A stretch of DNA of 64,000 nt, from positions 2,528,001 to 2,592,000 of the forward strand of contig CBDCJH010000002.1 in NCBI GenBank assembly GCA_965217775.1, given 5' to 3'. The notes under the pieces are model-generated. The model saw nothing but the letters and a program-made list of their open reading frames with translations. It was not told where the DNA came from and did no database searches. The stretch is from Acidobacteriota bacterium. Lineage in GTDB: Bacteria > Acidobacteriota > UBA6911 > RPQK01 > JAJDTT01. Each line of letters begins with the position of its first letter. The stretch's first letter is position 1. Below are positions 1-64,000 of this stretch, in pieces. Made by a program: the position numbers and the translations under genes.

Positions 1-3000
1 CAATAGCTCTCCGCCCTGATCGTAAAAGTAGATGGCGGGACGGGCGGTCGAAGCGGCCACGTTCACCAGCACCAGGTCGGAGGTGATCAAGGTCCCGTCG
101 CCGGACGTTCCATTGGCGAAGTGCGCGAAGTTGAGCGTCGTTTCCTGGTCTTCGGTAGCCTCCGGGCCGATCGGCACCACCGGCAGCGTGGTGAAGATCC
201 GGTTTCCCGCATCCAGCTCCACCGCCACTCCCGTGAACGACTCACCGGCAGGGACCGTACAACGCACCGACCCCACGAAGTCCGTGGTGTCGGTCGCGGT
301 GAACAGCTCCTCGAGGAACTGGGCATCCTGGCCGTTGGCGCTTAGCTCGATCTCCCCCTCTTCCAGCACTCTGCCGTCCTTCATCAACCGGCACTGGACG
401 TCGACAGCCTCCATCCCCAAGTTGTGGATGGCCGCCGCAGTGCGGATTCCGCCCGACTGCCGCCGGGCCGGGAACAGGGCGTCCGACGTGGGTTCGCTGG
501 CGCCGACGCCGGCGACGCCGATTCCGGGGATGTCGAAGCGGACCACGCCGCCGATGGGTCCGTCCGACACCACCCGCACCGACCCCGTCACCACCTCTCC
601 CCGGCCGTGGGTGGAGATCGTCAACTCGCCCAGCGACGCGATCTCTGTCCGGGGCGCCAGCCCTCCGTCCTCCCGGATCTCCAGATCCTCCCCGACGTCC
701 ACCACGGACTCGGCCTCAAACAGATCTCCCTCCCGGTCGAAGAAGTAGATGACGGGACGGATCTCATTCTCGGCCACGTTCACCAGCACCAGGTCGGAGG
801 TGATGAGGACGTCGTCGCCCGAAACCCCGTTGCCGAAATGGGCGAACTCCAGGATCACCTCCTCGGCCATAGGCGTGGCCTCGACCGGGCTGGAGGGAGG
901 ACTCTGGCCGACTTCGTTCACGGCCCGCACCTCGAAGATGTAGGTCCGACCGTTGGTCAGTCCGGCGACGGTATGGGTCAGGTCCGTGGAACCGATGGAG
1001 GTCCAGTCCCCGGCCCGGTCGATTCGGACCTGGTAGCCGGTGAGGGCAGAGCGGCCGTCGCTCTCGGGGGCCTTCCAGGTCAGCGTCACTTCACCGTCCC
1101 CGGCTTCTGCCTGCAGGTTCAACGGTGCCGTGGGCACAGTCGCAGCCGGAGGCGGTGGTGGCGGCGGCGGTGGTGGCGGTGGCGGAGGAGGCGGCGGCGG
1201 TGGAGGAGGTGGCGGCGGTGGTGGCGGAGGGGGAGGAGGAGGTGGTGGGGGCGGGGCCGAGACTTCGTTGTCCTGGACCGTCACCCGGGCGCTCCGGGTC
1301 GAAGTGGGTCCCAGCCGGTACTCGTCTCCCGGCAGCAGCCGGGCGGTGACCCGGCTGGTGGATTCGGCGACATCGTCATCATCGGTCAACACCTCCAGCG
1401 TCGCCGTCTCCTGTCCGGTCCGGAACTCCACCTCCTCCGGCGGTGCGTAGTCGCCCGAGGTCTCGATCATCGATCTCGTCTCCGTGACCTCCAGGTTCAC
1501 CGTCAGCGGGGCCTCCGTCGGGGGTCCGCGCGTCAGGGTGAACTCCACGGTGTCGCCTTCCGTCACCGTCTCGGATCCCTGCTTGGCTTGGATCGTGACC
1601 AGTGGCGGGTCCGCCCGTTGATCGGTCAACGCCTCCACGGTGTTACCCACCTCGTCCTGGAGCGGGTCGAGCCCGGGTGTATAGCTCACCCTTACCGTCT
1701 CGCCCGCCGTCACCCGTGAGGTCAGCGTCAAGATGACGCTGTTTCCGCTCACCCGAACCTGGAGCACCATTCGATCATCCCCGGCCACCGTCACCGCGAA
1801 ATCGAACCGCGATGGTGTCGAGCCCTCATCCAGCGCCTCGTCGTAGGTCAGCGCCACCCGCGAGCCATGCACCGTCACGCCCTCCAGTCCCGGCACGCTC
1901 GCGTCCACCTTGTGGTCCGCCTGCGCCTCCACCGCCTCGTAGCTCCGCGCCGCCGGGTTGTCCGCCAGATCCAGGATCTTTCCTCCATTGAGAGAGATGC
2001 TCCCGCGCGGGACGCTCACGCCGTCCTCGTCCTCATCTCCTTTCTCCACCGTGTAGACGAACAGCACGGCCGGCTGGTCCGGCCCCACACTGGCACTGGC
2101 CCGCTTCCGCCGGGTCCCCACCAGAAGATCCAACGTCGGCGTTCCGCGAATGGTGTCCACCGTCACCGGCTCGTCGTACCGCACCGTCACCGAGATCATG
2201 TCGTCGACCGCGTAGGTCTCGTCCGTCCCCGGGTTCGAGCTGATCTCGATCCCTTCGATCGACGGCGCCGTGGTGTCCGGTGTCCGGTTGTCCACGAACT
2301 GGTCTCTGAAGGCTTCGGCGTCATTGCCCACCGGGTCCTGGATCGGATTCGATCGCGGCTCGTAGCTCACCCGGATCCCCGTCTCTCCGTACTCCGCCGC
2401 CGGGTTCACCGTGAGACGAACCGTGCTCCCGCTCACCTGAACCCGGGTCACGGTGCGTGTCTCGTTGCCTCCCTCCACGGTGAAGTCGCTCGTCGCCGGC
2501 CGCGAAGAGGTGTCGAGCGGTTCGTTGTAGGTCAGCGTCAGCGTCGCGCCGTTGACCACCGCCGGATCGGTCAGTGCCAGCACCGGGGCCACCGCGTCCA
2601 CCTTGTGGCTGGAACTGGCCGCCACGGCCTCATAGTCCAAGGTCGCGTCATTGCCCGCTCCGTCGCGGATCCTTCCGCCGGCTCGCGACAGCCGGTTCTC
2701 CTCGAGGCTCACTCCGTCCTCGTCGTTGTCCCCAGTGACCACCCGGTAGGCGAACTTCACCGCCCGGGTCGAGACGCTCCGATACTCCGCCCTTCGGTTC
2801 CCGCCGCCCACGTTCAGGGTCAGTTCCGGCGTTCCGGTGATCACCACCGTCTCGTCGAACGTCACCGTCACCTCGATGGCCTCGTCCACGCCGTAGGTCC
2901 GATCCGACCCCGCACTCGAGGTGATCCGAACCCTCGACACGGCCGGTCCCGTCGTGTCTCCCGTCCGGTTCGTGACGCTCTTGCTGCTCAACCGGTCCGC

Positions 3001-6000
3001 GTCGTTCCCTGCGGTGTCCTGAATCGGATTCGATCCCGGCTCATAGTTCACCCGGAGGCGGCTCTCTCCATCCGCGACGGCCGAGCTCAGCGTCAGGAAC
3101 ACGGCGCTTCCGCTGACCCGGACGCCGGTGACCGTCCGCGTCTCACTCCCGCCTGTCACGGTGAAGTCGTCCGTCGCCGGCACCGAAGAGGAATCCAACG
3201 GCTCGCCGTACGCCAGCGTCAGCGTCCTCCCGTTCACGACCGCTCCGTCGCTGGTCGCCAGAGTGGGCTTGACCCCATCCACCTGGTGCCGGGAATCGGC
3301 CGCGACCGGCGCGTGGTTCCGCACGGCGTTGTTCCGGGCGCCGTCGCGGATGGTGCCGCCGGACAGGCGGTTCGCCTCGATGCTCACCCCGTAAGCAGCA
3401 CTGTCGCCGGAGACCACCTGGTATTCGAACCTCACGGCGGCCCCCGTGACGTCCTGGTAGTTGGCCGTCCGGTTCCGGCCGCCCACGTTCAGCGTCAACC
3501 GTGGCGTCCCCGTCACCACCACCGTCTCGCTGAACGTCACCGTCACTTCGATGGTCTCGCCGGCCGCGTAGGTTGAATCCGATCCTGCGTTCGAGGTGAT
3601 CCTCACCGTCTCCACGGTCGGCCCCGTCGTGTCTCCCGTGTGGTTGGTGACCGGTTGGTTGTTCAGCTCATCCGCGGCGTTGCCCACCGGGTCCTCGATC
3701 GGATTCCCCCCCGGTTGGTAGCTCAACCGGAGGCCGCTCTCTGTGTCCTGCACGGTCGGACTCAGAGTCAGCAAGACCGCGCTTCCGCTCACCTGCACCC
3801 GGGTGACCGTCCGGGCCTCACTCCCCCCGGTCACGGTGAAGGCGCTCGCCGCCGGTCTTGAGGAGGAGTTCAGCGGCTCGCTGTAGGCCAGCGTCAGCTT
3901 CGTTCCGTTCACCACCGCCCCGTCCGTCGTGGCCAGCACTGGGAGGATCCCGTCCACCTGGTGCCGCGCATCGGCCGCCACCCCCGCGTGGTCCAAGGTG
4001 GCGTCATTCCGGGCGCCGTCGCGGATCGTCCCCGCACCGCGCGACAGGCTGTCCGCATCGATGCTCACTCCGTCCCCGTCGTTGTCACCCGGGACCACCC
4101 GGTAGGCGAACTTCACGGCCTGGTTCTTGACACTTCGGAAGTTCGCCGTTCGACTCCGACCGCCTACGTTCAGGGTCAATTGCGGGGTCACCGTCACCAC
4201 CACCGTCTCGTCGAACGTCACCGTCACTTCGATAGTCTCGTCCACCCCGTAGGTCCGATCCGACCCTGCACTCGAGGTGATCCGAACCGTCGATACGGTC
4301 GGTCCCGTCGTGTCTCCCGTCCGGTTCGTGACGCTCTTGCTGCTCAACCGGTCCGCGTCGTTGCCCGCCGTGTCCTGAATCGGATCCGACCCGGGCTCGT
4401 AGCTCACCCGAAGGCCGCGCTCACCGTCCGTTACGGCCGAGCTCACCGTCAGGAACACCGCGCTTCCGCTCACCCGGACGCCGCTGACCGTCCGCGTCTC
4501 ACTCCCTCCCGTCACGGTGAAGTCGTCCGTCACCGGCACCGAAGAGGAATCCAACGGCTCGCCGTAGGCCAGCGTCAGCGTCGTGCCGCTGGCCACCGCC
4601 CCGTCGGACGTCGCCAGCCTGGGCTTGACCCCATCCACCTGGTGCCGGGAATCGGCCGCCACCGGCGCGTGGTTCCGCACGGCGTTGTTCCGGGCGCCGT
4701 CCCGGATCGTCCCTCCCGACAGGCGGTTCGCGTCGATGCTCACCCCGTAAGCAGCACTGTCGCCGGAGACCACCTGGTATTCGAACCTCACGGCGGCCCC
4801 CGTGACGTCCTGGTAGTTGGCCGTCCGACTGCGGCCGCCCAGGTTCAGCGTCAACCGCGGCGTCCCCGTCACCACCACCGTCTCGTTGAACGTCACCGTC
4901 ACTTCGATGGTCTCGCCGGCCGCGTAGGTTGAATCCGATCCTGCGTTCGAGGTGATCCTCACCGTCTCCACGGTCGGCCCCGTCGTGTCTCCCGTCCGGT
5001 TCGTGACTGGTCGGTTGTTCAGCTCGTCCGCGGCGTTGCCCACCACGTCCTCGATCGGATTCCCCCCCGGCTGGTAGCTCAACCGGAGGCCGCTCTCTAT
5101 GTCCGTTACGGCCGGGTTCAACGTCAACAGGACCGCGCTTCCGCTCACCTGCACCCGGGTGACCGTCCGTGTCTCACTCCCCCCGGTCACGGTGAAGACG
5201 CTCGTCGCTGGTCGAGATGACGACCTCAGCGGCTCGCTGTAAGCCAGCGTCAGCGTCGTTCCGTTCACCACCGCCCCGTCCGTAGTGGCCAGCACCGGAG
5301 GCACCCCGTCCACTTGGTGCCGGGAATCGGCCGCCACCGCCGCGTGGTCGAGCTGCGCGTTATTCCGGGCGCCGTCCCGGATCGTCCCTCCACCGCGCGA
5401 CAGGCTGTCGGCATCGATACTCACGCCGTCCCGGTCGCTGTCGCCCCGGGAGACCTTGTACTCGAACTTCACGGCCGCCCCCGTGACACTCAGGTAGTCG
5501 GCCGTTCGATTCCGGCCGCCCACATTCAGCGTCAGCCGCGGGGTTCCCGTCACCACCACCGTTTCGTCGAACGTCACCGTCACCTCGATGAGATCTTCCA
5601 CCGCGTAGGTCCGATCCGACCCCGCATTGGAGGTGATCCTCACCATCTCGACCGTCGGTCCTCCCGCATCGCCTGTGTTGTTGGTGACGCTCTTGTTGAT
5701 CAACCGGTCCGCATCGTTGCCGGCCGTGTCCTGAATTGGGCTCGCGCTCGCCCCGGTCGGCACCGTATAGCTCACCCGCAGGCCCGTCTCCCAGTGCTCC
5801 ACCGCCGGAGTCAGGGTCAGCTCCACCGAGTTCCCGCTCACCCGGACTCCGGTGACCGCCCTCGTCTCGCTCCCCCCCGTCACGGTGAAAGCATCGTTCC
5901 CCGGCGCCGAGGATGTGTCCAGAGGCTCACTGTAGGCCAGCGTCAGCATCGTTCCGTTCGCGACGGCGCCGTCGGTGCTCGCCAGGACGGGTTTGATGCC

Positions 6001-15312: not shown

Positions 15313-15357
15313 AATCCTGGGGTGAGGAAGAATCGGTGTCCTTACGGGGACTTCGAT

Positions 15358-15471: not shown

Positions 15472-15477
15472 GGGTCG

Positions 15478-15563
15478 ATTATAAGGAGCAACCCGGACGA
15501 ATTTGGGGCCTAATAGTGAAATCTGAGTGATATTTTGGTCGGTATAGTGATACTATAGTGAAA
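15478..15563 (-). promoter_or_regulatory. Conserved promoter module 1: -10 TATAAT plus four direct repeats
   Basis: TATAAT at 15483-15478 on the minus strand. Plus-strand GTGAAA 15516, GTGATA 15527, GTGATA 15547, GTGAAA 15558. Geometry is identical in all four intergenic regions. Confidence 0.75.
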
Positions 15564-15570
15564 TGTTCCA

Positions 15571-15600
15571 CCCGGACCGCCCTCACCGGCGGTGACCGGG
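15571..15600 (-). terminator. GC-rich hairpin 3' of G2 without a U-tract (possible terminator, pause or stability element)
   Basis: CCCGG-UC-ACCGCC-GGUGAG-GGCGGU-CCGGG. Weaker versions sit at the same position after G3, G4 and G6. Confidence 0.25.
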
Positions 15601-15641
15601 GGATTCAGGGAGGGGATCGTCTTCCGACTACTCTCGGCAGG

Positions 15642-30134: not shown

Positions 30135-30171
30135 CACCTTCCGGGGGGTCGGGGACAGGTGAGGATTGCGA

Positions 30172-30290: not shown

Positions 30291-30336
30291 GGTGTGCGAG
30301 CGTCCGCTGTTCCATCCTCTATCCGTCCACGTGTCG

Positions 30337-30422
30337 ATTTTAAGGAACAACCCGGACGAATTTGGAGCTAATTCGTGAAATTAGGATGATATTTTGGTCA
30401 GTACAGTGATACTTTAGTGAAA
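30337..30422 (-). promoter_or_regulatory. Conserved promoter module 2
   Basis: -10 TAAAAT at 30342-30337. Repeats GTGAAA 30375, ATGATA 30386, GTGATA 30406, GTGAAA 30417. Confidence 0.75.
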
Positions 30423-30500
30423 TGTTCCACCCGAACCGCCCTCACCGGGGGCGACCGGGGGATTCAGGGAAGGGATCGTCTTTCGACTACTCTCGGCGGG

Positions 30501-49238: not shown

Positions 49239-49271
49239 CTTCCGGGGGTCGGGGACAGGTGAGGATCGCGG

Positions 49272-49350
49272 CGTAGGGGCACCCCTTGTGGGTGCCCGCT
49301 GTCGCCCCTACGAGCCCGGGGAGGGCGACCACACAAGGGTCGCCCCTACG
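49272..49350. repeat. Inverted pair of GTAG-type REPs (REPIN-like) with an internal REP fragment, in the G3 leader
   Basis: cGTAG-GGGCACCC-CTTGT-GGGTGCCC (49272-49297), fragment GTCGCCCCTACG (49301-49312), and inverted GGGCGACC-ACACAAG-GGTCGCCC-CTACg (49323-49350). Confidence 0.8.
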
Positions 49351-49396
49351 GGTGTGCGAGCGTCCGCTGCTCCATCCTCTATCCGTCCACGTGTCG

Positions 49397-49482
49397 ATTT
49401 TAAGGAGCAACCCGGACAAATTTGGAGCTAATCCGTGAAATTAGGATGATATTTTGGTCTGTATAGTGGTTCTTCAGTGAAA
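49397..49482 (-). promoter_or_regulatory. Conserved promoter module 3
   Basis: -10 TAAAAT at 49402-49397. Repeats GTGAAA 49435, ATGATA 49446, degenerate GTGGTT 49466, GTGAAA 49477. Confidence 0.72.
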
Positions 49483-49560
49483 TGTTCCACCCGGACCGCC
49501 CTCAGCGGGGGCAACCGAGGGATTCAGGGAGGGAATCGTCTTCCGACGACTCTCGGCGGA

Positions 49561-55500: not shown

Positions 55501-58500
55501 GCGGATCGTGCCTCCACCGCGCGACAGGCTGTCCGCATCGATACTCACGCCGTCCCGGTCGCTGTCGCCCCGGGCGACCCTGTACTCGAACTTCACGGCC
55601 GCCCCCGTGACACTCAGGTAGACGGCCGTTCGACTCCGGCCACCCAGGTTCAGCGTCAACCGCGGCGTGCCCGTCACCACCACCGTCTCGTTGAACGTCA
55701 CCGTCGCCTCGATGGGATCGTCCACGGCGTAAGTTGAATCCGATCCCGCACTCGAGGTGATGCGCACCGTCTCCACGGTCGGCCCCGTCGTGTCTCCCGT
55801 GACGTTGTTGACCGGCTGGGAGGGCAACGGGTCCGCATCGTTGCCGGCCGTGTCCTGAATCGGGCTCGCGCTCGCCCCCGTCGGCACCGTGTACCTCACC
55901 CGCAGGCCCGTCTCCCCGTGCTCCACCGCCGGATTCAGGGTCAGCTCCACCGCGCTTCCGCTCACCCGGACTCCCGTGACGGTCCGCGTTTCACTCGCTC
56001 CGGTCACGGTGAAGGCGTCGTTCCCCGGCGCCGAAGACGTATCCAGCGGCTCGCCGTAGGCCAGCGTCAGCATCGTCCCGTTCGCGACGGCACCGCCGGT
56101 GCTTGCCAGTACGGGCTTGATGCCGTCCACCTTCTGCCCGGTGTCGGCCGCCACGGCCGTATGGGTCAGGACGGCATGGTTCCTTGCGGTGTCCCGGATC
56201 GTCCCGGTGCCCCGCGACAGGCTGTCCGCCTCGAGGCTCACCCCGTCGGTGTCGCTGTCGTTGGTGGCCACCGTGTAGGCGAAGACCACCACCGCCCCCG
56301 TGACGCTCTCGTAGTTCGCCGATCGATCCCTCTCTCCCACCTTCAACGTCACCCGGGGCGTCCCGGTCACCAGGACCGTCTCGCTGAAGGTCACCGTCAC
56401 CTCGATCTCCTCGCCGGCCCCGTAGACGTCGCGGCTGTCCGGGGGATCCGACGTGAGCTCCACCGAGGTGACGGTCGGTGGGATCCGGTCCGGAGTCTCG
56501 TTCGTCACCGGCGCGCCGCTCAGCCGGTCCGCGTCGTTTCCGGCCCGGTCCTGAATCGGCGTCGCCCCCATCCCGGCCGGGACCGTGTAGCTCACCCGGA
56601 TCCCCGTCTCCCAATGCGCCACCGCGGAGGACAGAGTCAGATCCACCGCACTTCCCCTCAACGCAACATTGGAGACCGCGCGGGACGAAGACCCCCCCGA
56701 CACGGAGAAGGCGCCGGAAGGCGGCGTTGACGCCGAGTCCAGCGTCTCGGTATAGGTCAGCGTCAGCGTCGTTCCGTTCACCACCGCTCCGCGGGTCGCC
56801 GCCAACTCCGGCTGGATGCCGTCCACCTGGTGCCGCGATTGGGTTCCCAGCGCCCGGTGATCCAGATCGGCCTCGTTGTCCGAGCCGTCTTTGAGGGTTC
56901 CTCCGTTCAGCGACAGGCTGTCGGCCGCGATGCTCACTCCGTTGGCGTCGACGTCCCCGGGGACCACCCGGTAGCGGAACAGCACCTCCTCGTCGGCGAC
57001 GCTGTCGTAGTCCGCCGGTCGATCCCGGTTGCCCACCTTCAGCGTCAACTGCGGCGTCCCGGTCACGAAGACCTCCTCGCTGAAGGTCACCGTCACCTCG
57101 ATCTCGTCCCCGATCGCGTATGTTGAATCCGATCCCGCATCCGACGTGATCTCCAGCTTGCTGACCGTCGGGTCCGTCGTATCCGGGATCGGCACGAACA
57201 CCGAGACCCGCCGGCTTCGGCTCGCTTCGCCGCCATGGACCACGGCCGCCACTTGATAGACGTAGGTGGCGCCGGCGGGCGCGTCGGTATCGACGTAGGT
57301 GCGGCTTGAAGTGTTCTCGGAGAGGATCTCGACCGTGGCCCCTTCCCGCGTGACGGTGTAGGTGACGTTCGCCTCCGGGGTCCAGTGGGTCGCGTCCACC
57401 GCGGTCCATTCCAACTCCACCTGTCCCACGCCCCGCGTCGCCATCAGAGTCGGACCTTCCCGGATCTGATGGCCGAACTCCTTCCAGTCGCCGGTCCCCT
57501 TCAGCACCGGATATTCGTCGGTCATCCCGAAGTGCCAGGGGTCGTCCTCCATGCCGTCGCCGTCGAGGTCCACGTTCCAGTCCGCGTAGATGCCGCTGTA
57601 GCCGGTGGGCGCCTGCAGAGTTCCCGTGCTCCGGCCGACGCCTCCGTCGCCGGTGGATTGGCCCGACGTCGTCCTGTCCCAGTAGCTGACGCTGATCTCG
57701 CGGGAACCGAACCGTCCGACCAGTCCGCCGACCTGCTCCTCGCCCGACACCGGGCCGGTCGCGTAGCTGGCCGTGATCGCGCGGACGCCGCCGGTGAAGG
57801 ACTCCCCCACCAGCCCACCCACGCTCGTCGTGCCCGACACCCGGCCGGTCGCGTAGCTGGCCGTGATCGCGCCACCGTAGTAGTTCTCCCCGGCCAGTCC
57901 GCCGACATGGCTGTTGCCCGACACCCGGCCGGTCGCGTAGCCGGCCACGATGGCGCCGTCGTTTCTACCCGCCAACCCACCGACCCGCTCCTCACCGGAC
58001 ACCCGGCCCGCCGCGTAGCTGGCCGTGATCTTGCCGGTGTTGCTACCCACCAACCCACCGACCCAGGAGTTTCCCGTCACCTCGATCTCGATGACCCCGA
58101 CATTACGAATACTGCCGGACCGGTCGGTTTTGGCGAACAGCCCGACCCCGTTCTCCGTGGGCCGGTTGATGAACAGGTGGCGAATGGCATGCCCGTTGCC
58201 CTCGAACTCTGCTCCGTATGAGGTCCCCCCGCCGTTACTGACAGGGTCCCAGCCGGCGCCCCCGTTCCACCAGGTGGTGTCGTCCGCAGCGACCCGACCG
58301 TCCCCGTTGGCGTCATCGTTCGTATCGACCTGGCCATCCCCGTTGACGTCCAGGAAGTCCAGTTCCGCCAGCAGCTCGTAGCCAATGCACGCCCCCTGGC
58401 AGCGCAGCCGCTCCTGGTCGTCGGGGAACGCCAGGGGGAACGCCGCTCGATACACCGCTGCTCCGCGGATAGAGGGCTTGCCATTGCCGTCCAGGTCATG

Positions 58501-60831
58501 CCGGACCGCATCGAACTGCGCCAGCGTCGTGATCTCGATCAGCCCGTCATGGTCCGCGTCGTAGTGCGGCTGCGGTGTCTCGTTCGTCACCGACCGATCG
58601 GTGAAGGCCGCCGCCTTGGTGCCCGCCGCATCGCGAAGAGACCACGCTCCCGGACTGTAGCTCACCGTCACCGTTTGCCCGTGAAACACCCACCGAGACA
58701 ACCTCAGCACCAAGGTCTGCGACATCACCTCCACACCTTCCACGTGCACGGTGTTGCCGCCGCTCGTCACCGCGAACGAGGCCAAGACCCGGGTGTCGAA
58801 GCCCGAGGTCCGTTTCAGTGCCTCGTCGTAGGTCAACGCCAGCCGGGTGCCGTCGGCCACTGCCCCCTGCAGCACCGGCCGGACGCCGTCCACCCGGTGG
58901 CCCGCGTCGGCCTCCACCGCCGCGTGCGTCAGGTCGGCATTGTCGGCGCCGTCCCGGATCGTGCCCGACAGACTGTCGGCCGCGATGCCCACCCCGTCGG
59001 TGTCGCTGTCGCCCTCGACCACGGTGTAGGCGAAGGTGAGCACCTCGCCGCCGCCGCCCCGATGCGTCATCTGCCGCGTAGCGCCGCCCAGCGTCAACCC
59101 GAGTTGCGGGGTGCCCGTGACCGTGACGCTCTGGTCGAAGCGCACCGTGGCCTCGATCTCGTCGCCCAGGGCGTAGATCGCGCGCGAGCCCGGATCCGAG
59201 GTCAGGGCAACCGCGTTCACGCTCGGCGCGCCCGCCACCGTGGCTTCGTCGTCGTCGAGCGTCACCGTGGCGCTGTCCGGGCTGCCGACCGTCATCTCCG
59301 ACGGCAGCAGCGAGGTGTCGAACGCGAGCGTGACCGTCTCGCCGTCGTCGTCGGCGTCGTCGTCGACCGCAGTGACGGTGAAGGTCTGCGCGGTCTCGTC
59401 GGCGGCAAAGGCGACGCTTCCCGGCGCGGTGTAGTCGCCGGCCGTGGCGCCGCTCGCTCCCGTCGACAGCAGGGGAATGGAAACCGGGCGTCCGGGCGCC
59501 GCGCTCAAGCTGACCGTCACGGTCGCCGCGGCGCCGCTCTCGGCCGCGGTGTAGGTCGCTGCGCCGAAGGAGACCGTGACTGCGGGTGGCGTCCGGAAGT
59601 TCGCCACCGTGGCGCGCGTCCGGTTGAGCGTGCGAACCGCGTCGGCGGGGCCTTCCAAAGCGTTCGAGGGCTCGCGGCCGGCCGCGCCCAGGGGGTCCCC
59701 CCCCGGATCGGGATAGGCCTGGTCCGGGTTCGAGAAACGCATCAACCTCTGACAGTAGAAATCTCCACGGACGCACTGGTAATCGTAGGACATGATCGTG
59801 CGCCAGCGGGCGGACGCCGGGGCATCCTCGTCGAAGGCCCGCTGGTTCACATAGCCGTAGGCGTAGGCCGTCGCCCCTTCGGTGCATCTACCGTCCCCGA
59901 GGAACTGACACGCCAGATATCGGTCTTGGGCCAGGCCCATGAGGTGGCCCAACTGATGGGCAAATGTGCGGGAACCGCCGCGACGGCCTGAAACGGCAAA
60001 CGCATCGGCCGCGGAGGCATTGGCGGGCGTCAGGAACGTGTAGGCAGCGCCGGTCCGGTACCTGGCGATCAGCACGACGATGTCCGCTGCAACCTGGTCG
60101 CGGATGGTGTGGACTTCGTCCATGCGGCCGTCCGACGGATCCTGCAGACGGTCCACATCGAAACCCGGGTCCGGGTCCGGGTACTCCACCTCCTCGACGG
60201 CGGCGAGGGCGATGCGCTGGTTCACCCCGCTCGCCCGGTAGGCCCGGTTGGTCTCCGCGGCCATGAGGTCGATCTCGGCCATGATCGCGGCGGTCCCGCC
60301 GGCGCCGTTCCGGGCGGCCGGCGTGTAGAAGACCGCCACGTCGATCACGGACTGCTCCGTCGGCGGACAGGTCAGGCCGGCGAAGGAGATCCCGGCCAGC
60401 CAGGTCTGAAAGTCGGTGTCGGCCGGGGCGCACAGCTCGGTGTGGGACAGATCCACGGCCGCGAGCGCCGACAGCTCCCGCAGGCCGTCCGGGAGCGGAC
60501 CCGTCAACGCGTAGTTGCGGTCGAGCAACAGAGATTCGAGGTGGGTCAGGTTCTCCAGCTCAGTCGGGAGCGTCCCGTTCAACCCGTTTTCTTGGAGTTC
60601 CAGCCTGGTGACGCGGCCGTCGCCGTCGGTGGTCACGCCGTGCCACGTCGACAACGCCTGAGCAGTTCCCCAGTTCGTGGCGTCCGTCCAGTCCGCGCCG
60701 TTCGTGGCGTCGTACAGCGCCTGCAGCGCCGCCGTGTCGGTCGCGACACTTCCTTGCTGTGCACGAGCGCCGGCCGCCAGGCACAGCAGCACGACCGGCA
60801 ACAGGTTGTAACGATGAATACGACGGCGCAT
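49561..60831 (-). CDS. G4: giant secreted protein (3756 aa): signal peptide, LRR with N-cap, reprolysin/M12B-like pseudopeptidase, Calx-beta, Ig/SwmB unit, one GLUG module, 8 SwmB-like units, poly-Pro, Fn3, duplicated C-terminal domain
   Basis: Sec signal ending ARA|QQ. ALQALYDATNG..W...NW...WHGVT...GRVTRLEL..NGLNGTLP.EL.NL is a plant-type LRR with cap. IDVAVFYT...FAHQLGHLMGLAQD...TIMSY...FSNP is a metzincin domain. Confidence 0.95.
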   Translation of the reverse strand: MRRRIHRYNLLPVVLLCLAAGARAQQGSVATDTAALQALYDATNGADWTDATNWGTAQALSTWHGVTTDGDGRVTRLELQENGLNGTLPTELENLTHLESLLLDRNYALTGPLPDGLRELSALAAVDLSHTELCAPADTDFQTWLAGISFAGLTCPPTEQSVIDVAVFYTPAARNGAGGTAAIMAEIDLMAAETNRAYRASGVNQRIALAAVEEVEYPDPDPGFDVDRLQDPSDGRMDEVHTIRDQVAADIVVLIARYRTGAAYTFLTPANASAADAFAVSGRRGGSRTFAHQLGHLMGLAQDRYLACQFLGDGRCTEGATAYAYGYVNQRAFDEDAPASARWRTIMSYDYQCVRGDFYCQRLMRFSNPDQAYPDPGGDPLGAAGREPSNALEGPADAVRTLNRTRATVANFRTPPAVTVSFGAATYTAAESGAAATVTVSLSAAPGRPVSIPLLSTGASGATAGDYTAPGSVAFAADETAQTFTVTAVDDDADDDGETVTLAFDTSLLPSEMTVGSPDSATVTLDDDEATVAGAPSVNAVALTSDPGSRAIYALGDEIEATVRFDQSVTVTGTPQLGLTLGGATRQMTHRGGGGEVLTFAYTVVEGDSDTDGVGIAADSLSGTIRDGADNADLTHAAVEADAGHRVDGVRPVLQGAVADGTRLALTYDEALKRTSGFDTRVLASFAVTSGGNTVHVEGVEVMSQTLVLRLSRWVFHGQTVTVSYSPGAWSLRDAAGTKAAAFTDRSVTNETPQPHYDADHDGLIEITTLAQFDAVRHDLDGNGKPSIRGAAVYRAAFPLAFPDDQERLRCQGACIGYELLAELDFLDVNGDGQVDTNDDANGDGRVAADDTTWWNGGAGWDPVSNGGGTSYGAEFEGNGHAIRHLFINRPTENGVGLFAKTDRSGSIRNVGVIEIEVTGNSWVGGLVGSNTGKITASYAAGRVSGEERVGGLAGRNDGAIVAGYATGRVSGNSHVGGLAGENYYGGAITASYATGRVSGTTSVGGLVGESFTGGVRAITASYATGPVSGEEQVGGLVGRFGSREISVSYWDRTTSGQSTGDGGVGRSTGTLQAPTGYSGIYADWNVDLDGDGMEDDPWHFGMTDEYPVLKGTGDWKEFGHQIREGPTLMATRGVGQVELEWTAVDATHWTPEANVTYTVTREGATVEILSENTSSRTYVDTDAPAGATYVYQVAAVVHGGEASRSRRVSVFVPIPDTTDPTVSKLEITSDAGSDSTYAIGDEIEVTVTFSEEVFVTGTPQLTLKVGNRDRPADYDSVADEEVLFRYRVVPGDVDANGVSIAADSLSLNGGTLKDGSDNEADLDHRALGTQSRHQVDGIQPELAATRGAVVNGTTLTLTYTETLDSASTPPSGAFSVSGGSSSRAVSNVALRGSAVDLTLSSAVAHWETGIRVSYTVPAGMGATPIQDRAGNDADRLSGAPVTNETPDRIPPTVTSVELTSDPPDSRDVYGAGEEIEVTVTFSETVLVTGTPRVTLKVGERDRSANYESVTGAVVVFAYTVATNDSDTDGVSLEADSLSRGTGTIRDTARNHAVLTHTAVAADTGQKVDGIKPVLASTGGAVANGTMLTLAYGEPLDTSSAPGNDAFTVTGASETRTVTGVRVSGSAVELTLNPAVEHGETGLRVRYTVPTGASASPIQDTAGNDADPLPSQPVNNVTGDTTGPTVETVRITSSAGSDSTYAVDDPIEATVTFNETVVVTGTPRLTLNLGGRSRTAVYLSVTGAAVKFEYRVARGDSDRDGVSIDADSLSRGGGTIRDGARNNAQLDHAAVAADSRHQVDGVPPMLASTDGAVVNGTTLTLAYSEPLNSSSRPAASAFTVTGGSETRTVTRVQVSGNAVLLTLNPAVTDGESGLRLSYQPGGNPIEDTVGNAADELNNRPVTNHTGDTRGPTVETVRITSNAGSDSTYAAGETIEVTVTFSETVVVTGTPRLTLNLGGRNRTANYQDVTGAAVRFEYQVVSGDSAAYGVSLDANRLSGGTIRDGARNNAVLNHAPVAADSRHRVDGVKPALATTDGAVVNGTTLTLAYGEPLDSASVPATDDFTVTGGSETRAVTGVRVSGSAVFLTLSSAVAVGEVRLRVNYEPGSNPIRDTAGNDADRLSNQSVTNRTGDTAGPTVEMVRITSNAGSDRTYRVDNPIEVTVTFGETVVVTGTPRLTLNLGGRSRTADYLNVTGAAVKFEYRVARGDSDRDGVSIDADSLSRGGGTIRDGAGNDATLDHAAVAADSRHQVDGVPPMLASTDGAVVNGTTLTLAYSEPLRSSSRPATSAFTVTGGSEARTVTRVQVSGSAVLLRLNPAVTDAESGLRLSYQAGTNPIEDTVGNAADGLNNEPVTNHTGDTTGPAVETVRITSNAGSDSTYAAGETIEVTVTFNETVVVTGTPQLTLNLGGRNRTANYQDVTGAAVRFEYQVVSGDSAAYGVSIEANRLSGGTIRDGARNNAGLNHAPVVANSRHQVDGVKPTLATSDGAVAKGTTLTLAYGEPLDSSSVPATDDFTVTGGSETRTVTGVRVSGSAVFLTLSSAVAEGESRLRVNYEPGSNPVQDTAGNDADRLSNRSVTNRTADTMGPAVSTVRITSSAGSDRTYGVDETIEVTVTFDETVVITGTPEVTLDVGGRSRTAEYRSVSNQAVKFAYRVVTDDNDEDGVSLEANRLSRAGGTIRDGAGNDAVLDHMAVAASSSHKVDAVAPVLALTDPAVVNGATLTLTYNEPLNTSLRPLTSDFTVEGGNETRTVTRVQVTGSEVRLTVNPAAEHGETGIRVSYEPRSNPIQDAIGNDAEAFRDEFVDNRTPDTTAPSIEGIQISSDPGTDETYAVDDMISVTVRYDETVTVDTIRGTPTLDLLVGTRRKRAAASAGPDRPAVVFVYTVEKGDEDEDGVSVPRGSISLNGGKILDLADNTAARSYEAVEAQAGHKVDASVPELEGVTVHGSRVALTYDEALDEGSTPSRFDFAVTVAGDDRTVVQVRVSGNSVILTLTSEVTAGEPVMVSYTPGFNPIQDEAGNAVEGLIDHRVDPPLVTIQAKQGSETVTEGDTVVFTLTRGPPTEATLTVSLEVTETRSMIETSGGYEPPEEVEFRSGQETATLEVLTDDDDVAESTSRVTARLQPEDEYRLGPTSTRSARVTVQDNEVSAPPPPPPPPPPPPPPPPPPPPPPPPPPPPPPPPPPPPPPAATVPTAPLNLQAEGGDGEMTLFWEAPESDGRAAIMDYEVRIDRAGDWISIGSTDRTHTVTGLTNGRTYVFEVRAVNSVGPSPPSSPVEATPMAKEVILEFAHFGNGYSGNDVLITSDLVLVNVAESEIRPVIYFFDRAGDLFEAESVVDVGEDLEIREDGGLSPRKEIASLGELTISTHGRGVVVTGSVRVVSDGPIGGVVRFDIPGIGVAGVGASEPTADALFPARRQAGGIRTAAAIHNLGLEAVDVQCRLMKDGRVLEEGEIPLSANGQAAQFIEELFTATDTTDFVGSVRCTVPAGESFSGVAVELDAGNRIFTTLPVVPIGPEAIEDQETTLNLAHFANGTSGDGTLITSDLVLVNVAASTARPAIYFYDHGGELLEPESMVEVEDHLLVREDGGLTLRTAMARLGELTISTHGRGDVVTGSVRVVANGPIGGVLRFDIPGVGVAGVGASQPTSDALFPARRQAGGIRTAAAIRNLAAQRATVRCRLMSGGEPLEEADIRLNAHGQQARFIEEVFTRTDTRDFVGSVRCTALGEGLFTGVAVELDTGNRIFTTLPVVPIQR
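51265..51378 (-). repeat. Poly-proline tract, 38 Pro codons (G4)
   Basis: 114 nt of CCN codons. Confidence 0.95.
51740..57185 (-). repeat. Intragenic array of 8 Ig-like + SwmB-like units (G4)
   Basis: Repeat motifs in the translated ORF. Confidence 0.85.
59600..60360 (-). other. Reprolysin/M12B-like metzincin domain with altered zinc motif (within G4)
   Basis: HQLGHLMGLAQD (59958-59923) replaces HExGHxxGxxHD. The Met-turn TIMSY is present near 59785-59799. Confidence 0.85.
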
Positions 60832-61442
60832 TAGGGGGAACGGTGCATCAGGCGGGTTCCCTCGGCTTGCGACCCCAGCACCTCACATTCCAGAGGCGGC
60901 ATCTCGACTCGGCTGACGGCGTACAGTCCATCGCCCGCCGACCGAATCCAGTAGGTCCCACCGAGTGTCCGTACCGTGCCGGCGACCGTCTCGCCGTTGA
61001 CGACGAGCGTCACCGTACCCGGCTCTTCCCCAACGAGCCGGCCCGATAATGAATAACCGCCCGAGAACGTCGGCGCCGTCCGCTCGACGATCCCTGTGAA
61101 CACCACGTCCTCGAACAGGTTCAAGGTCAAGGTCTCATCCGCCGCAGGCACCCGGTCACGCACGCCCCGACGCGGCGACACGACTTCCGTCTGCACGCGG
61201 GGGCGGGAGAGCACGGAGGCGGCGGCCCGGGCGCGCTGGAGCCGTTGCAAGTCGATCGTCACCAGCCGGCGGCGCACCACCGTGGCGTCGTGCGACGCGG
61301 GGGCGGGCGAATCCAGCCGTGCCGCCGGGCGATCGATCGTGGAAAAGAGGTCTCGGCTCCGGGCCTCGACGGCTAAGGGGGCCAGCCACGCCAGCCCCAA
61401 GACGAAGACCACTGTGATGCTCCGCACGCTTGTCCACGACAC
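60831..61442 (-). CDS. G5: secreted 203-aa protein resembling a stand-alone prodomain of bacterial M12B/reprolysin metallopeptidases
   Basis: GTG start with GGAGG 9 nt upstream. Signal peptide ending VEA|. LTLNLFEDVVFTGIVER...GYSLSGRL...VTLVVNG..VAGTVRT...Y.IR...PPLEC resembles M12B propeptides. Its TAA overlaps the G4 ATG (TAATG). Confidence 0.8.
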   Translation of the reverse strand: MSWTSVRSITVVFVLGLAWLAPLAVEARSRDLFSTIDRPAARLDSPAPASHDATVVRRRLVTIDLQRLQRARAAASVLSRPRVQTEVVSPRRGVRDRVPAADETLTLNLFEDVVFTGIVERTAPTFSGGYSLSGRLVGEEPGTVTLVVNGETVAGTVRTLGGTYWIRSAGDGLYAVSRVEMPPLECEVLGSQAEGTRLMHRSP

Positions 61443-61493
61443 GGCACGTCCCTCCCTTGCGCGTCCCCGACGCCTCGGCGACGCCGTTCCGCA

Positions 61494-61614
61494 GAGAGCG
61501 AGAAAGGATGCTCGCTCCCATCCGTCTACCGTTAGGCTCGACTCCTGCCAGGCAGGGTGCTCCGAGCCGATGCGCGCTGTCTCTCCACATGATGAGTTCT
61601 GTGCGATAGACAGC
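61494..61614 (-). ncRNA. Candidate structured 5' leader RNA, copy 2
   Basis: Closing helix GUCUAUCG/CGGUAGAC (61611..61524), hairpin CACA-GAACUCAUCA-UGUG, CCUGCC/GGCAGG, and downstream hairpin GGGAGCGAG/CUCGCUCUC. Homologous to 15358-15471. Confidence 0.4.
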
Positions 61615-61620
61615 GTGTCT

Positions 61621-61706
61621 ATTGTAAGAAGGAACCCGGACGATATTGGTTCAAATACATGAAAATAGGGTGATATTTTCGTTGATAAAGTGATACTTCA
61701 GTGAAA
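61621..61706 (-). promoter_or_regulatory. Conserved promoter module 4
   Basis: -10 TACAAT at 61626-61621. Repeats ATGAAA 61659, GTGATA 61670, GTGATA 61690, GTGAAA 61701. Confidence 0.75.
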
Positions 61707-61784
61707 TGTTCCACCGGGACCACCCTCACCGGTGGCAATCGAGGGATTCAGGGAGGGGATCGTCTTCCGACTACTCTCGGCGGG

Positions 61785-64000
61785 TCATCTTTGAATCGGC
61801 ACCACCGGCAGCGTGGTGAAGATCCGGTTGCCGGTGTCCAGCTCCACCGCGACTCCCGTGAACAGGCCTTCCCCGAGAGCCGTGCATCTCACTGATCCGA
61901 CGAAGTCTCTGGTATCCGTCCGGGTGAAGACCTCTTCGATGAACCGGGCATGCTGCCCGTGGGCGTTGAGACGGATGTCCACCTCTTCCAGCGCCTCGCC
62001 CCCGCTCATCAACCGGCACCGCACCGTTGCGCGCTGCGCCGCCAGGTTGCGGATCGCCGCCGCGGTGCGGATCCCGGTTGGCTGCCGCCTCGCCGGGAAC
62101 AGGGCGTCCGTCGTGGTTTGACTCGCGCCCACGCCGGCCACGCCGACGCCGGGGATGTCGAAGCGCAGGACGCCGCCGAGGGATCCGTTCGCCACCACCC
62201 GCACCGATCCGGGCACCACCTCGCCCCGGCCGTGGGTCGAGATCGTCAACTCGCCCAGACGGGCCATGGCCGTTCGTACGGTCAGACTTCCGTCCTCTCG
62301 GACGAGAAGATGGTCTTCGACCTCCACCATCGACTCCGGCTCCAATAGCTCTCCGCCCTGATCGTAAAAGTAGATGGCGGGACGGGCGGTCGAAGCGGCC
62401 ACGTTCACCAGCACCAGGTCGGAGGTGATCAAGGTCCCGTCGCCGGAAGTTCCGTTGGCGAAATGGGCGAAGTTGAGTGTCGTTTCCTGGTCTTCGGCAG
62501 CCTCCGGGCCGATCGGCACCACCGGCAGCGTGGTGAAGATCCGGTTGCCCGCATCCAGCTCCACCGCCACTCCCGTGAACGACTCACCCGCCGGGACCGT
62601 ACAACGGACCGACCCCACGAAGTCCGTGGTGTCGGTCGCGGTGAACAGCTCCTCGATGAACTGGGCGGCCTGGCCGTTGGCGCTCAACGGGATCTCCCCC
62701 TCTTCCAGCACCCTGCCGTTCTTCAGCAACCGGCACTGCACGTCGACGGCCTCCATTCCCAGGTTGTGGATGGCCGCCGCGGTGCGGATCCCTCCGTCCT
62801 GCCGCCGGGCCGGGAACAGGGCGTCGGACGTGGGTTCGCTGGCGCCGACACCGGCGACGCCGATTCCGGGGATGTCGAAGCGGACTACGCCTCCGATGGG
62901 GCCGTCCGACACGACTCGGACCGATCCCGTCACCACTACGCCCCGGCCGTGGGTGGAGATCGTCAGCTCGCCCAGCGACGCGATCTCCGTCCGGGGCGAC
63001 AGCCCTCCGTCCTCCCGGATCTCCAGATCGTCCCCGACATCCACCACGGACTCGGCTTCAAACAGATCTCCCTCCCGGTCGAAGAAGTAGATGACGGGAC
63101 GAATCTCCGACTCGGCCACGTTCACCAGCACCAGGTCTGAGGTGATGAGCACGTCGTTGTCCGAAACCCCGTTGCCGAAATGGGCGAACTCCAGGATCAC
63201 CTCCTCGGCCATGGGCGTGGCCTCGACCGGGCTGGAGGGAGGACTTGGACCGACTGAATTCACCGCCCGCACCTCGAAGACGTAGGTCCGGCCATTGGTC
63301 AGTCCGGTGACCGTATGGGTCAGGTCCGTGGAACCGATGGAGGTCCAGTCCCCGGCCCGGTCGATCCGGAGCTCGTAGTCCGTGACGGCCGCGCGGCCGT
63401 CGCTCTCAGGCACCTTCCAGATCAGCTTCACTTCACCGTCCCCGGCTTCTGCCTGGAGGTTCAAGGGCGCTGTGGGCGCCGTCGCAGCCGGAGGCGGTGG
63501 TGGCGGTGGTGGTGGAGGTGGTGGCGGTGGTGGCGGCGGCGGTGGGGGAGGTGGAGGTGGTGGGGGAGGAGGGGGAGGTGGCGGAGGCGGGGTCGAGACT
63601 TCGTTGTCCTGGACCGTCACCCGGGCGCTCTGAGTCGAAGTGGGTCCCAGCCGGTACTCGTCTCCCGGCTGCAGCCGGGCGGTGACCAGGCTGGTGGATT
63701 CGGCGACGTCGTCATCGTCGGTCAACACTTCCAGCGTCGCCGTCTCCTGTCCGGTCCGGAACTCCACCTCCTCCGGCGGTTCGTACCCGCCCGAGGTCTC
63801 GATCATCGATCTCGTCTCCGTGACCTCCAGGTTCACCGTCAGTGGGGCCTCCGTCGGGGGTCCCCGCGTCAGGATGAACTCCACGGGGGCGCCTTCCGTC
63901 ACCGTCTCGGATCCCTCCTTGACCTGGATGGTCACCAGGGGCGGGTCCGCCCGGTGATCGGTCAACCCCTCCACGGCGTTACCCACCTCATCCTGGATCG
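61785..64000 (-). CDS. G6: 3' end of a further giant paralog (5'-partial): end of SwmB-like unit, Calx-beta-like, poly-Pro, Fn3, duplicated C-terminal domain
   Basis: The frame stays open past the track start (IQDEVGN up to the window edge). The sequence is nearly identical to the last ~735 aa of G2-G4. Confidence 0.93.
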   Translation of the reverse strand, partial: IQDEVGNAVEGLTDHRADPPLVTIQVKEGSETVTEGAPVEFILTRGPPTEAPLTVNLEVTETRSMIETSGGYEPPEEVEFRTGQETATLEVLTDDDDVAESTSLVTARLQPGDEYRLGPTSTQSARVTVQDNEVSTPPPPPPPPPPPPPPPPPPPPPPPPPPPPPPPPPPAATAPTAPLNLQAEAGDGEVKLIWKVPESDGRAAVTDYELRIDRAGDWTSIGSTDLTHTVTGLTNGRTYVFEVRAVNSVGPSPPSSPVEATPMAEEVILEFAHFGNGVSDNDVLITSDLVLVNVAESEIRPVIYFFDREGDLFEAESVVDVGDDLEIREDGGLSPRTEIASLGELTISTHGRGVVVTGSVRVVSDGPIGGVVRFDIPGIGVAGVGASEPTSDALFPARRQDGGIRTAAAIHNLGMEAVDVQCRLLKNGRVLEEGEIPLSANGQAAQFIEELFTATDTTDFVGSVRCTVPAGESFTGVAVELDAGNRIFTTLPVVPIGPEAAEDQETTLNFAHFANGTSGDGTLITSDLVLVNVAASTARPAIYFYDQGGELLEPESMVEVEDHLLVREDGSLTVRTAMARLGELTISTHGRGEVVPGSVRVVANGSLGGVLRFDIPGVGVAGVGASQTTTDALFPARRQPTGIRTAAAIRNLAAQRATVRCRLMSGGEALEEVDIRLNAHGQHARFIEEVFTRTDTRDFVGSVRCTALGEGLFTGVAVELDTGNRIFTTLPVVPIQR
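63489..63590 (-). repeat. Poly-proline tract, 34 Pro codons (G6)
   Basis: 102 nt of CCN codons. Confidence 0.95.

Follow-up and report, generated by a model that had tools for sequence, protein, structure and literature searches.

A tandem array of giant modular proteins with variable heads and a shared tandem C-terminal domain in an Acidobacteriota bacterium

Introduction

SwmB of marine Synechococcus, the source of the stalk repeat family SWM_repeat (PF13753), is a giant protein of presumed surface location, encoded by a single gene that is tied to swimming motility. The present work concerns a stretch of 64,000 nt from the genome of an Acidobacteriota bacterium (C2:2528001-2592000, hereafter the window; the genome is in two contigs of 6.29 Mb and 144 kb, with 62.3% G+C), which carries a head-to-tail array of giant genes. 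Their products share with SwmB the repeat family, the giant size and the presumed location, and differ from it in that the SWM repeat is here one module in a family of 13 members, whose heads are enzyme-like and which have, besides, a poly-Pro rod and another C-terminal domain (CTD). This domain, a unit of 235 aa that stands in tandem (CTD1, CTD2) at the end of the giants, forms an unnamed tail with an ASRT-like fold, which is not specific to the array and is a family-wide C-terminal tag.

Other described systems come close in one respect or another. The giant RTX adhesins exported by the type I secretion system (T1SS), such as LapA, MpIBP and SiiE, also use a long, repetitive Ig-like stalk to keep ligand-binding or enzyme domains at a distance from the cell, and LapA-type and Calx-beta domains occur in one of the array proteins, G3. 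In the giants described here, however, the signal is N-terminal and of Sec type, where the adhesins have a C-terminal one for T1SS; the Pfam tables of the giants contain no RTX repeat family, and the variable end of LapA is opposite to theirs. The cargo of the type IX secretion system (T9SS), with its own CTD, and the SLH, LPXTG and PEP-CTERM proteins resemble them in the use of one constant C-terminal module on many exported payloads and in the numerous, often clustered paralogs; they differ in that the module here consists of tandem Ig-like plus ASRT-like units that match none of those models. Polymorphic toxins (Rhs, CDI; PMC3482391, in part) also combine a constant with a variable part and recombine between tandem copies, whereas in the present array the variable part is N-terminal and not a toxin, each copy forms a complete gene that has an upstream module to itself, and the spacers consist of trailer, module and leader, plus one companion open reading frame (ORF).

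The ASRT/TM1070 (ASRAH) superfamily was defined by De Souza, Iyer and Aravind, who predicted sugar binding and described tandem extracellular forms, as in actinobacterial surface lipoproteins; an almost invariant Asn that closes strand 2 is its hallmark (PMC2739507, in part). The tail of the giants resembles this superfamily in its beta-sandwich, in an Asn at the end of strand 2 and in its tandem extracellular use, and departs from it by an Ig-like half added to each unit, by its C-terminal place on giant proteins, by its lineage and by having no Pfam sequence match. To our knowledge, how Acidobacteriota export and hold very large surface proteins has not been worked out, and the literature on giant or SwmB-like proteins of Acidobacteriota, on sponge symbionts and on tandem giant paralogs, covered mostly at the level of abstracts, gave no account of this system. 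The giants are a real family of modular exported proteins, with SwmB as relative for the stalk, the RTX giant adhesins for the logic and the C-terminally tagged cargo for the organisation. We propose that the locus is a recombining six-gene array within this 13-member family of Sec-exported proteins, with a glycan-retained tail and with its own promoters, a reading that, taken as a whole, we give an even chance of being correct.

Results and discussion

Architecture of the array and of the giant family

On its minus strand the window contains five giant ORFs in head-to-tail order, two of them (G1 and G5) cut by the window edges (Table 1); in the genome the array comprises six genes (G1-G6) on the same strand, with 92.5 kb and 28,947 codons. 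The stop of G1 lies in the genome 555 nt past the window start, G5 reaches about position 2603656, and the extension of the flanks, proposed earlier as a check, brought to light the sixth giant G6 and an adjacent kinase-regulator gene. None of the giant translations has internal stops, and the frames antisense to them are spurious. For G2, the ORF listing had put the start at an upstream TTG (30350), and the ATG of MKRIRLTG was used instead. The spacers between giants measure 329, 366 and 322 nt, and the 953-nt gap between G5 and G4 contains a 203-aa ORF whose start lies 342 nt after the G5 stop.

All 13 giants of the genome with this tail (G1-G6, A1-A3, B1-B2 and S1-S2) were searched by BLASTP for self-defined modules, and in 13 of 13 the same plan was found: a payload, SWM stalk units, a Calx-like domain, a poly-Pro segment, an Fn3 domain, CTD1 and CTD2. 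The stalk unit of about 225 aa combines SWM_repeat with a Big_5-like part and is repeated five to eight times per protein (six to eight in the six array genes). SWM_repeat itself is matched with E values from 1e-63 to 1e-101, in 5-9 stretches per protein and with 208-331 bits against a cut-off of 27, while TIGR02059 (swm_rep_I) stays under its cut-off (26.8 vs 40.1 bits). The poly-Pro segment, encoded by mixed codons, has 24-38 residues (32-38 in the array) and is placed 567-572 aa from the C-terminus; the Fn3 domain gives Pfam E values of 1e-12 to 1e-20. Signal-peptide-like sequences were seen at the N-termini of the giants (translations of G1-G4).

The payloads are as variable as the rest is constant. 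A degenerate subtilase, an I9-like propeptide, a subtilase-like domain termed S8b and then Big_9/GLUG modules form the head of G1, G2, G3, G5, A2 and S1, to which G3 adds three Calx/LapA domains, spondin, cadherin and GSDH. The head of G4, A1 and A3 consists of LRR, a reprolysin-like domain and Calx, with or without GLUG; that of G6 of cadherin, GSDH, cadherin, Fn3 and an arylsulfotransferase-like domain; B1 and B2 have a PPDK_N-like head, and S2 a head of 370 aa with no assigned domain. Among the Pfam matches of these payloads are Peptidase_S8 (5e-12), GSDH (PQQ dehydrogenase, 1e-68), Spond_N (4e-37) and Reprolysin_4 (2e-10), and further matches in Pfam or NCBIfam are to cadherin, LapA, Calx-beta and LRR, the latter combined with a reprolysin-like or Mep72-like domain (3e-16). 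As an observation apart, PPDK_N (the AMP/ATP-binding domain of pyruvate phosphate dikinase) at the head of two tandem giants, with E values of 1e-24 and 4e-22, is odd for an exported protein.

These results can be set against an earlier note on the same DNA. It had described at least five head-to-tail paralogs of 3700 to 6200 aa in an array running past both window edges, and this agrees with the five giants in the window and six in the genome. The distance of 300-370 bp that it gave between genes is true for four of four spacers if the 203-aa ORF is taken as the first gene of the G4 cassette. Its statement that the N-terminal halves differ while the stalk and C-terminus are constant is in line with the module map over the 13 giants. 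The common end that it had listed (SwmB-type stalk, Calx, poly-Pro, Fn3 and a double C-terminal domain) is present throughout, except that the name Calx is more than the data allow, as the domain before the poly-Pro segment is weakly Calx-like and remains below threshold (Calx-beta, E 0.027, 14.9 bits vs a cut-off of 27). Absent from its list were the GLUG-motif modules, 430-580 aa long and with a Big_9-like domain in front of each, which make up a large share of the subtilase-type payloads.

The C-terminal domain, its fold and its distribution

The last 480 aa of the giants had no match in Pfam (E<=1) or NCBIfam (E<=0.1), and this includes the T9SS Por_Secre_tail CTD (PF18962 and TIGR04183, which we take to be its accessions). 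With respect to the PEP-CTERM and LPXTG types, the proteins have ...NRIFTTLPVVPIQR as their end and lack there a hydrophobic stretch, a transmembrane helix and a sortase motif. Each CTD unit is composed of an Ig-like half and an ASRT/TM1070-like beta-sandwich half, and the AlphaFold model, obtained with an alignment of 67 rows, is all-beta and contains two near-identical units (pLDDT 95.0, pTM 0.91). In an exhaustive structural search, CTD residues 370-480, a unit's second half, matched TM1070 best (1nc7_A; Z 13.2, rmsd 2.4, 106/116 residues) and the sensory rhodopsin transducer (ASRT) of Anabaena second best (2ii7_A; Z 9.9), followed by a match of Z 7.0. The closest named clusters among the language-model neighbours of the CTD in the Atlas, a protein atlas, were DUF5719 and ASRT. 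Because the CTD has no sequence match to Pfam ASRT (PF07100) or DUF5719 at E<=1, it is considered here a structural relative of the ASRT superfamily and not a filed member.

A residue comparable to the hallmark Asn is N155, which at least 90% of the 67 aligned rows conserve and with which strand 148-155, the second one in the ASRT-like half, ends; it is equated with N32 of TM1070 by its position and not residue by residue. Other conserved residues are R141, Q186, D199, E223 and D225, together with the Cys pair C165/C209. We read the CTD as a new extracellular branch of the ASRT/TM1070 fold and probably as a ligand-binding foot, and we infer that it anchors the protein to the cell.

The earlier note had taken the constant C-terminus for a feature of the array, a view that has to be abandoned since the CTD is spread through one order on dozens of payload types. 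In this genome alone, 51 CTD units were counted in 29 ORFs. Across 1.84 billion representative proteins, 1301 matches (protein clusters) were obtained at E<=1e-3 and 345 at E<=1e-30, and in 96 of the 150 matches listed the C-terminus follows a closing motif F[TS]T[LMIV]P within about 10-24 aa. Scanned against Pfam, the heads on 29 CTD matches comprised trypsin, astacin, LRR, NHL/teneurin, CARDB, cadherin, Calx, GSDH with spondin, S8 with GLUG, and arylsulfotransferase. All 31 related genomes of the order that were compared have the CTD, with between 1 and 34 matches per genome (a tally that includes an unpublished genome, G016), as do 18 of 201 genomes sampled across the phylum, 15 of which are from this order; the closest loci belong to metagenome-assembled genomes of Acidobacteriota bacterium. 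Three short ORFs with a single CTD (254-307 aa) were considered as stand-alone domain proteins and discarded, as their frames have neither a start nor a signal peptide and are probably remnants.

Within one lineage the CTD closes many exported payloads that are unrelated to each other, at their very C-terminus, and known sorting domains show this pattern; moreover, Sec-signal proteins of four to six thousand residues need a route across the outer membrane, and the last residues, FTTLPVVP, are nearly invariant. All this would be expected if the tandem CTD were a sorting signal for an outer-membrane export or attachment machine of the T9SS kind, perhaps removed or covalently processed, and not a means of glycan retention. 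However, two units of 235 aa are far above the size of known sorting tags, T9SS and other sorting-domain models give no match, two ORFs of this genome carry the CTD pair internally, and both the fold and the hallmark Asn are those of a predicted ligand-binding superfamily. We consider a sorting signal unlikely.

C-terminal carbohydrate-binding modules are common on secreted hydrolases and proteases. The polarity of the giants could accordingly be reversed or absent, the CTD being the end that binds a substrate or a host, in the manner of such modules, and the proteins being released or held in another way. The sugar binding predicted for the ASRT superfamily (PMC2739507, in part) would suit this role, and so would the payloads of animal extracellular-matrix kind (spondin, cadherin, LRR, reprolysin, astacin), which make it plausible that either end targets a host matrix. 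Against it, the N-terminal signal peptide is expected to be cleaved, which leaves no anchor on that side, and a constant rod and a stalk of 5-8 units beside the CTD, with the variation at the far end, better fit a common base with a variable tip. To a reversed or absent polarity, too, we attribute a low probability.

Spacers, promoter-like module and candidate regulator

The four spacers of the window align over the first ~190 nt after each stop and then continue with leaders of two types. The common element comprises a 45-nt 3' trailer and a promoter-side module of ~110 nt; we regard these as two parts because upstream of G6 and S2, where there is no preceding giant, the first 45-57 nt of the element are missing, and after G1, the last gene, the first ~45 nt alone are present. 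Both a 3' trailer common to the genes, which does follow G1-G5, and a conserved module ahead of each gene start, which does occur in all window spacers and before G6, had been recognised earlier in the window. In the module, four direct T[TA]TCAC hexamers, with starts spaced 11, 20 and 11 nt, are accompanied by two GTCCGGGT boxes and an invariant TAnAAT, with no recognisable -35.

BLASTN retrieved eight copies of the module in the genome, all upstream of giants (G1-G6, A2 and S2), and the strict four-hexamer pattern has seven matches in 6.3 Mb, all at these loci. The sister species (G006, OZ253580.1) has the module at both expected sites, 81-82% identical. The module is private to giant genes and conserved in the sister species. 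In an alignment of 10 copies, conservation ends ~10 nt after TAnAAT and is followed by the two types of leader, which is the pattern expected of a promoter and a freely evolving leader behind it and suggests a promoter role for the module. Rfam returned 0 families over the whole window. In the leader of G5, a mobile element stands between the module and the start (Table 1). As a separate observation, the G5 copy (genome 2603660-2603834) of the leader stretch that bears REP-like hairpins in type B leaders has matches of 73-90% at many other loci of the genome.

Divergent from G6, and starting ~50 nt past its module (285 nt from the G6 frame), is the gene of a 798-aa fused protein with GAF, PAS, HisKA, HATPase_c, Response_reg and Trans_reg_C domains. 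A 91% ortholog flanks the array of the sister species. Paralogs number 3-11 per genome in the genus; four of the five in this genome are located within 25 kb of a CTD gene, a result equalled or bettered by 73 of 20000 random placements, and the coordinates in three genomes (G001, G003 and G006) place one paralog about 2 kb or less from a giant CTD gene, as read off and not computed. OmpR/PhoB regulons have direct repeats with ~11-bp phasing upstream of activator-dependent promoters. The hexamers of the module keep their 11, 20, 11 spacing in 10 copies, and a Trans_reg_C protein is encoded next door; phased direct repeats together with an adjoining OmpR-type protein suggest that this regulator activates every cassette. 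The hybrid two-component regulators of polysaccharide utilization loci (PUL) in Bacteroides similarly unite kinase, receiver and DNA-binding output in one chain, lie beside a surface-protein locus that they presumably control and have many paralogs, but their output is of AraC type and their sensor periplasmic, whereas here a cytoplasmic GAF-PAS sensor is combined with an OmpR-type output, and the link between regulator and array consists in adjacency and motif type.

Recombination and comparison with relatives

Self-comparison of the array revealed, for every pair listed, shared 3' tracts of 6.3-10.1 kb with 85-91% nucleotide identity, which extend through the stop into the spacer. One repeat has 10,775 nt and 88% identity: the segment from G4 codon 1598 via the spacer to G3 codon 1314 matches that from G3 codon 4097 via the spacer to G2 codon 1341. 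As it spans a 3' half, a spacer and a 5' part, this repeat is the footprint of unequal crossing-over. The maximum-likelihood trees of the heads and tails disagree, being ((G5,A2),(S1,(G1,(G3,G2)))) for S8b and (S1,(A2,((G1,G5),(G2,G3)))) for the CTD, and each data set rejects the grouping of the other in the approximately unbiased (AU) test (p 0.012 and 0.001). The CTDs group by chromosomal array and not by head, so that A1, a metzincin type, goes with A2, a subtilase type (support 100), and B1 with B2 (100); those of G1-G6 stay together with weak support (63/91 or lower). At the N-terminus of G6 (L016; genome about 2619600-2619897), a relic of the MKRIRLTG leader of the subtilase type precedes in frame its own signal peptide and an unrelated payload, and this relic looks like a recombination scar. 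The conflict between payload and CTD trees and the duplicated unit point to recombination. Expansion by unequal crossover in the shared 3' end and intergenic region, as proposed beforehand, agrees with the 10,775-nt repeat and the discordant trees, that is, with the outcome of the self-comparison and per-module phylogenies that had been named as its check.

At the orthologous locus, the sister species has two genes against six here, followed by a TonB-dependent receptor; array content thus differs between congeners, and the identical gene content and domain order across relatives that the earlier note had named as a refutation are not observed. Its gene 1 is of the arylsulfotransferase type with two frame breaks, and gene 2 encodes a 6660-aa protein of the subtilase/GLUG/Calx type. 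Gene 1 (L002:476-11440) extends over three frames (476-3586, 3583-9522 and 9500-11440) and is either a pseudogene or affected by long-read indel errors. Tandem CTD giants also occur in other single-contig genomes, with two in G006 and, in G023, consecutive sets of three and of four.

The tandem paralogs, with their long shared tracts, recombine, and in G5 the mobile element separates the gene from its promoter-like module; both would suit antigenic or phase variation, with no more than a single cassette expressed at any given time. Every cassette, however, has a complete start, a signal peptide and its own conserved upstream module, and one shared regulator module predicts co-regulation. Furthermore, no invertible element was noted in the spacers read (in the three checked, inverted repeats are short hairpins alone), the array has no recombinase gene except the transposase of the multi-copy mobile element, and no promoterless silent copies were seen. 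Phase variation is, in our opinion, very unlikely.

Heads and the 203-aa companion

The earlier note had suggested that the heads may be interchangeable enzymes or host-binding tips, and for several of them a role as enzymes is doubtful. The first subtilase copy in each subtilase-type protein has no Ser (GTS) motif. The second, S8b, aligns with the last two thirds of the Pfam S8 profile, on its C-terminal side (E 5e-12), and belongs to a large clade of more than 4400 matches, in which GTSxAAPH and GNxGN motifs are invariant and Ser and Glu occupy the motif positions of subtilisin Asp32 and His64 in 33 of 33 aligned rows, according to a motif reading and not a superposition. This Ser/Glu set may represent a non-canonical catalytic set. 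In G4 the metzincin motif is HQLGHLMGLAQD, whereas the paralogs A1 and A3 keep HELGHxMGLxHD; the zinc site reads HQLGH...Q in G4 vs HELGH...H in A1/A3, so that the catalytic Glu is lost and the HExxHxxGxxH metzincin signature is absent. Judged by this motif, the G4 domain is a degenerate member, and its designation as a pseudo-metalloprotease was right for G4, given that the catalytic Glu is replaced there and kept in A1 and A3.

The stop of the exported 203-aa companion overlaps the ATG of G4 by 1 nt, and paralogs with 64-66% identity are found directly upstream of A1 and A3, hence before three of three LRR-metzincin giants. Complex prediction sets the 203-aa protein on the metzincin cleft with a score of 0.87, the best of three controls having 0.00; among solved complexes 116 of 157 attained the mark used, and among mismatched pairs 2 of 215. 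Between runs at least 65% of contacts agree, and the pLDDT of the partner is at least 74. The modelled interface takes in, on the side of the metzincin domain, residues 132-133, 136 and 142 of the motif and, on that of the partner, the conserved tail 181-190 with the invariant Cys186. The model supports, although it does not prove, a prodomain-like partner supplied in trans, with the caveat that the high score may be due to likeness to solved prodomain complexes.

Table 1. Positions of the giant genes and associated features (window positions unless a locus or genome position is indicated).
Feature	Position	Strand	Description
G1	1..15312	-	5289 aa in genome; last array gene; last 185 codons outside window; degenerate subtilase, one SWM unit, I9-like propeptide, S8b, three Big_9/GLUG, 8 SWM, Calx-like, poly-Pro 36, Fn3, CTD1, CTD2
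Module upstream of G1	15473..15584	-	hexamer pairs 15563-15547, 15532-15516; TATAAT ~15483-15478; type A leader
3' trailer after G2	15597..15641	-	~45 nt after stop
G2	15642..30134	-	4830 aa from ATG of MKRIRLTG; subtilase-type payload with three GLUG modules, 6 SWM, Calx-like, poly-Pro 32, Fn3, CTD1, CTD2
REP-like hairpins of type B leaders	30168-30204 and 49272-49312		
Module upstream of G2	30332..30443	-	hexamer pairs 30422-30406, 30391-30375; type B leader
3' trailers after G3, G4, G5	30456-30500, 49516-49560, 61740-61784	-	
G3	30501..49238	-	6245 aa; subtilase/GLUG payload, three Calx/LapA, Spondin_N, cadherin, GSDH, Calx/LapA-like unit with cadherin-like domains, 6 SWM, constant tail, poly-Pro 34
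S8b of G3	46359-47996	-	G3 residues 415-960
Module upstream of G3	49392..49503	-	hexamer pairs 49482-49466, 49451-49435; type B leader
G4	49561..60831	-	3756 aa; begins with signal peptide, then LRR, reprolysin-like, Calx-beta, SWM unit, GLUG module, 8 SWM, constant tail, poly-Pro 38
203-aa exported companion ORF	60831..61442	-	
Module upstream of 203-aa ORF and G4	61616..61727	-	hexamer pairs 61706-61690, 61675-61659; type A leader
G5	61785..64000 (continues beyond)	-	C-terminal 737 aa in window; 4623 aa in genome; subtilase/GLUG-type payload
Mobile element in G5 leader	genome C2:2603821-2607070; L015:14037-17286		3.25 kb; IS481-type transposase; six genome copies, 99.5-99.7% identical
G6	genome 2607283 to about 2619897	-	4204 aa; sixth member, upstream of G5
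Regulator	L016:12975-15368	+	cytoplasmic one-polypeptide sensor kinase-receiver-OmpR-type output
Companion-ORF copies before the other LRR-metzincin giants	L017:9905-10501 and L019:8616-9197	-	
PPDK_N giants	L022:202-9240 and L023:515-9532 (genome C2:2076201-2094777)		

With regard to the surroundings, the G+C content of the array, 63-69% in 2-kb windows, is higher than the genome value given above. About 9 kb downstream of the array are two adjacent exported LRR proteins of 865 aa (L024:1405-6742; genome C2:2513404-2518744), which adjoin a GSDH-cytochrome c protein and a 3-keto-disaccharide hydrolase.

Proposed mechanism and its weighing

In the mechanism that we favour, the tandem tail would be a glycan-binding retention module that attaches to a polysaccharide of the cell envelope or of its matrix, and the rigid proline rod and the stalk would hold the payload tens of nanometres away. 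Each cassette would be transcribed from its own activator-dependent promoter, with TAnAAT, no -35 and the hexamers near -92, -81, -61 and -50; its activator would probably be the fused GAF-PAS-kinase-receiver-OmpR-type regulator that is divergent next to the first gene. The array would grow and be reshuffled by unequal crossing-over and gene conversion in the 6-10 kb shared 3' halves and in the promoter modules.

Several results speak against this explanation. With regard to the tail, the Ig-like half of the CTD has generic matches alone, to pilin-type Ig domains with Z about 6, the background level; a Foldseek search of the CTD model against the PDB gave nothing beyond generic multi-Ig proteins (TM <= 0.17); and the sugar binding of the ASRT superfamily is itself a computational prediction. 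With regard to transcription, a consensus scan of two spacers detected no sigma-70 promoter and no intrinsic terminator, and the RNA folds of the four trailers are no better than those of shuffles (z -1.8 to +0.1), so that read-through transcription of several genes is possible. Five of the giants (A1, A3, S1, B1 and B2) have no module at a blastn E of 1e-3, and the adjacency of the regulator is partial, in that none is encoded near array A, array B or the lone gene S1. With regard to recombination, the clades submitted to the AU test were named after the trees had been seen. Finally, public contigs on the region (four runs, 44500-64000) come in pieces of up to 627 nt, and joints and loose ends are numerous at repeats.

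That the array is an assembly artefact joining dispersed or strain-variant genes, for which this last result, the difficulty of assembling long repeats and a contamination estimate of 7.5% for the genome could be invoked, is highly improbable, since the genome is in two contigs, the paralogs are 9-15% apart in DNA and each open over 3.7-6.2 thousand codons, independent single-contig genomes of the genus and order (G006, G023) carry tandem CTD giants, and near-identical pieces of the G4 payload and of the 203-aa ORF occur in four runs from four studies, which attest presence and not contiguity.

The results also revise the idea of a polymorphic surface-display system with the inverted polarity of polymorphic toxins, from which this work started. 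The constant C-terminus, the variable N-terminus and the recombination remain, while the system is closer to a sorting or anchor domain family; no immunity-like genes and no promoterless spare cassettes were found in the four window spacers or in the G6-G5 gap. New in this locus, besides the tail, are the documented recombination between heads and tails and the private promoter-like module with its adjacent one-polypeptide kinase-regulator. A bolder proposal can be advanced tentatively, with clearly less than even prospects: the tail may define a new C-terminal surface-retention or sorting class across one Acidobacteriota order, in which hundreds of enzymes and binding heads would stand on a glycan-binding foot, in some species on giant stalks, and the arrays would act as recombination-driven generators of new pairings of head and stalk, co-activated by a dedicated regulator via the private module.

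Conclusions

Several of the payload families are typical of the animal extracellular matrix (spondin, cadherin, LRR, reprolysin or astacin, and NHL), and such families have been discussed as attachment factors in sponge-associated bacteria (PMC8163846, in part). Acidobacteriota are abundant and mostly uncultured, and the locus provides handles on how they export and hold very large proteins, in the form of an unnamed CTD with more than 1300 clusters, a 110-nt control module with a candidate regulator, and natural swaps of heads above an unchanged stalk. Should the tail prove to serve retention or sorting, it would make the exported proteins and the surface proteins of the lineage recognisable from their sequence, and it would also offer a display scaffold.

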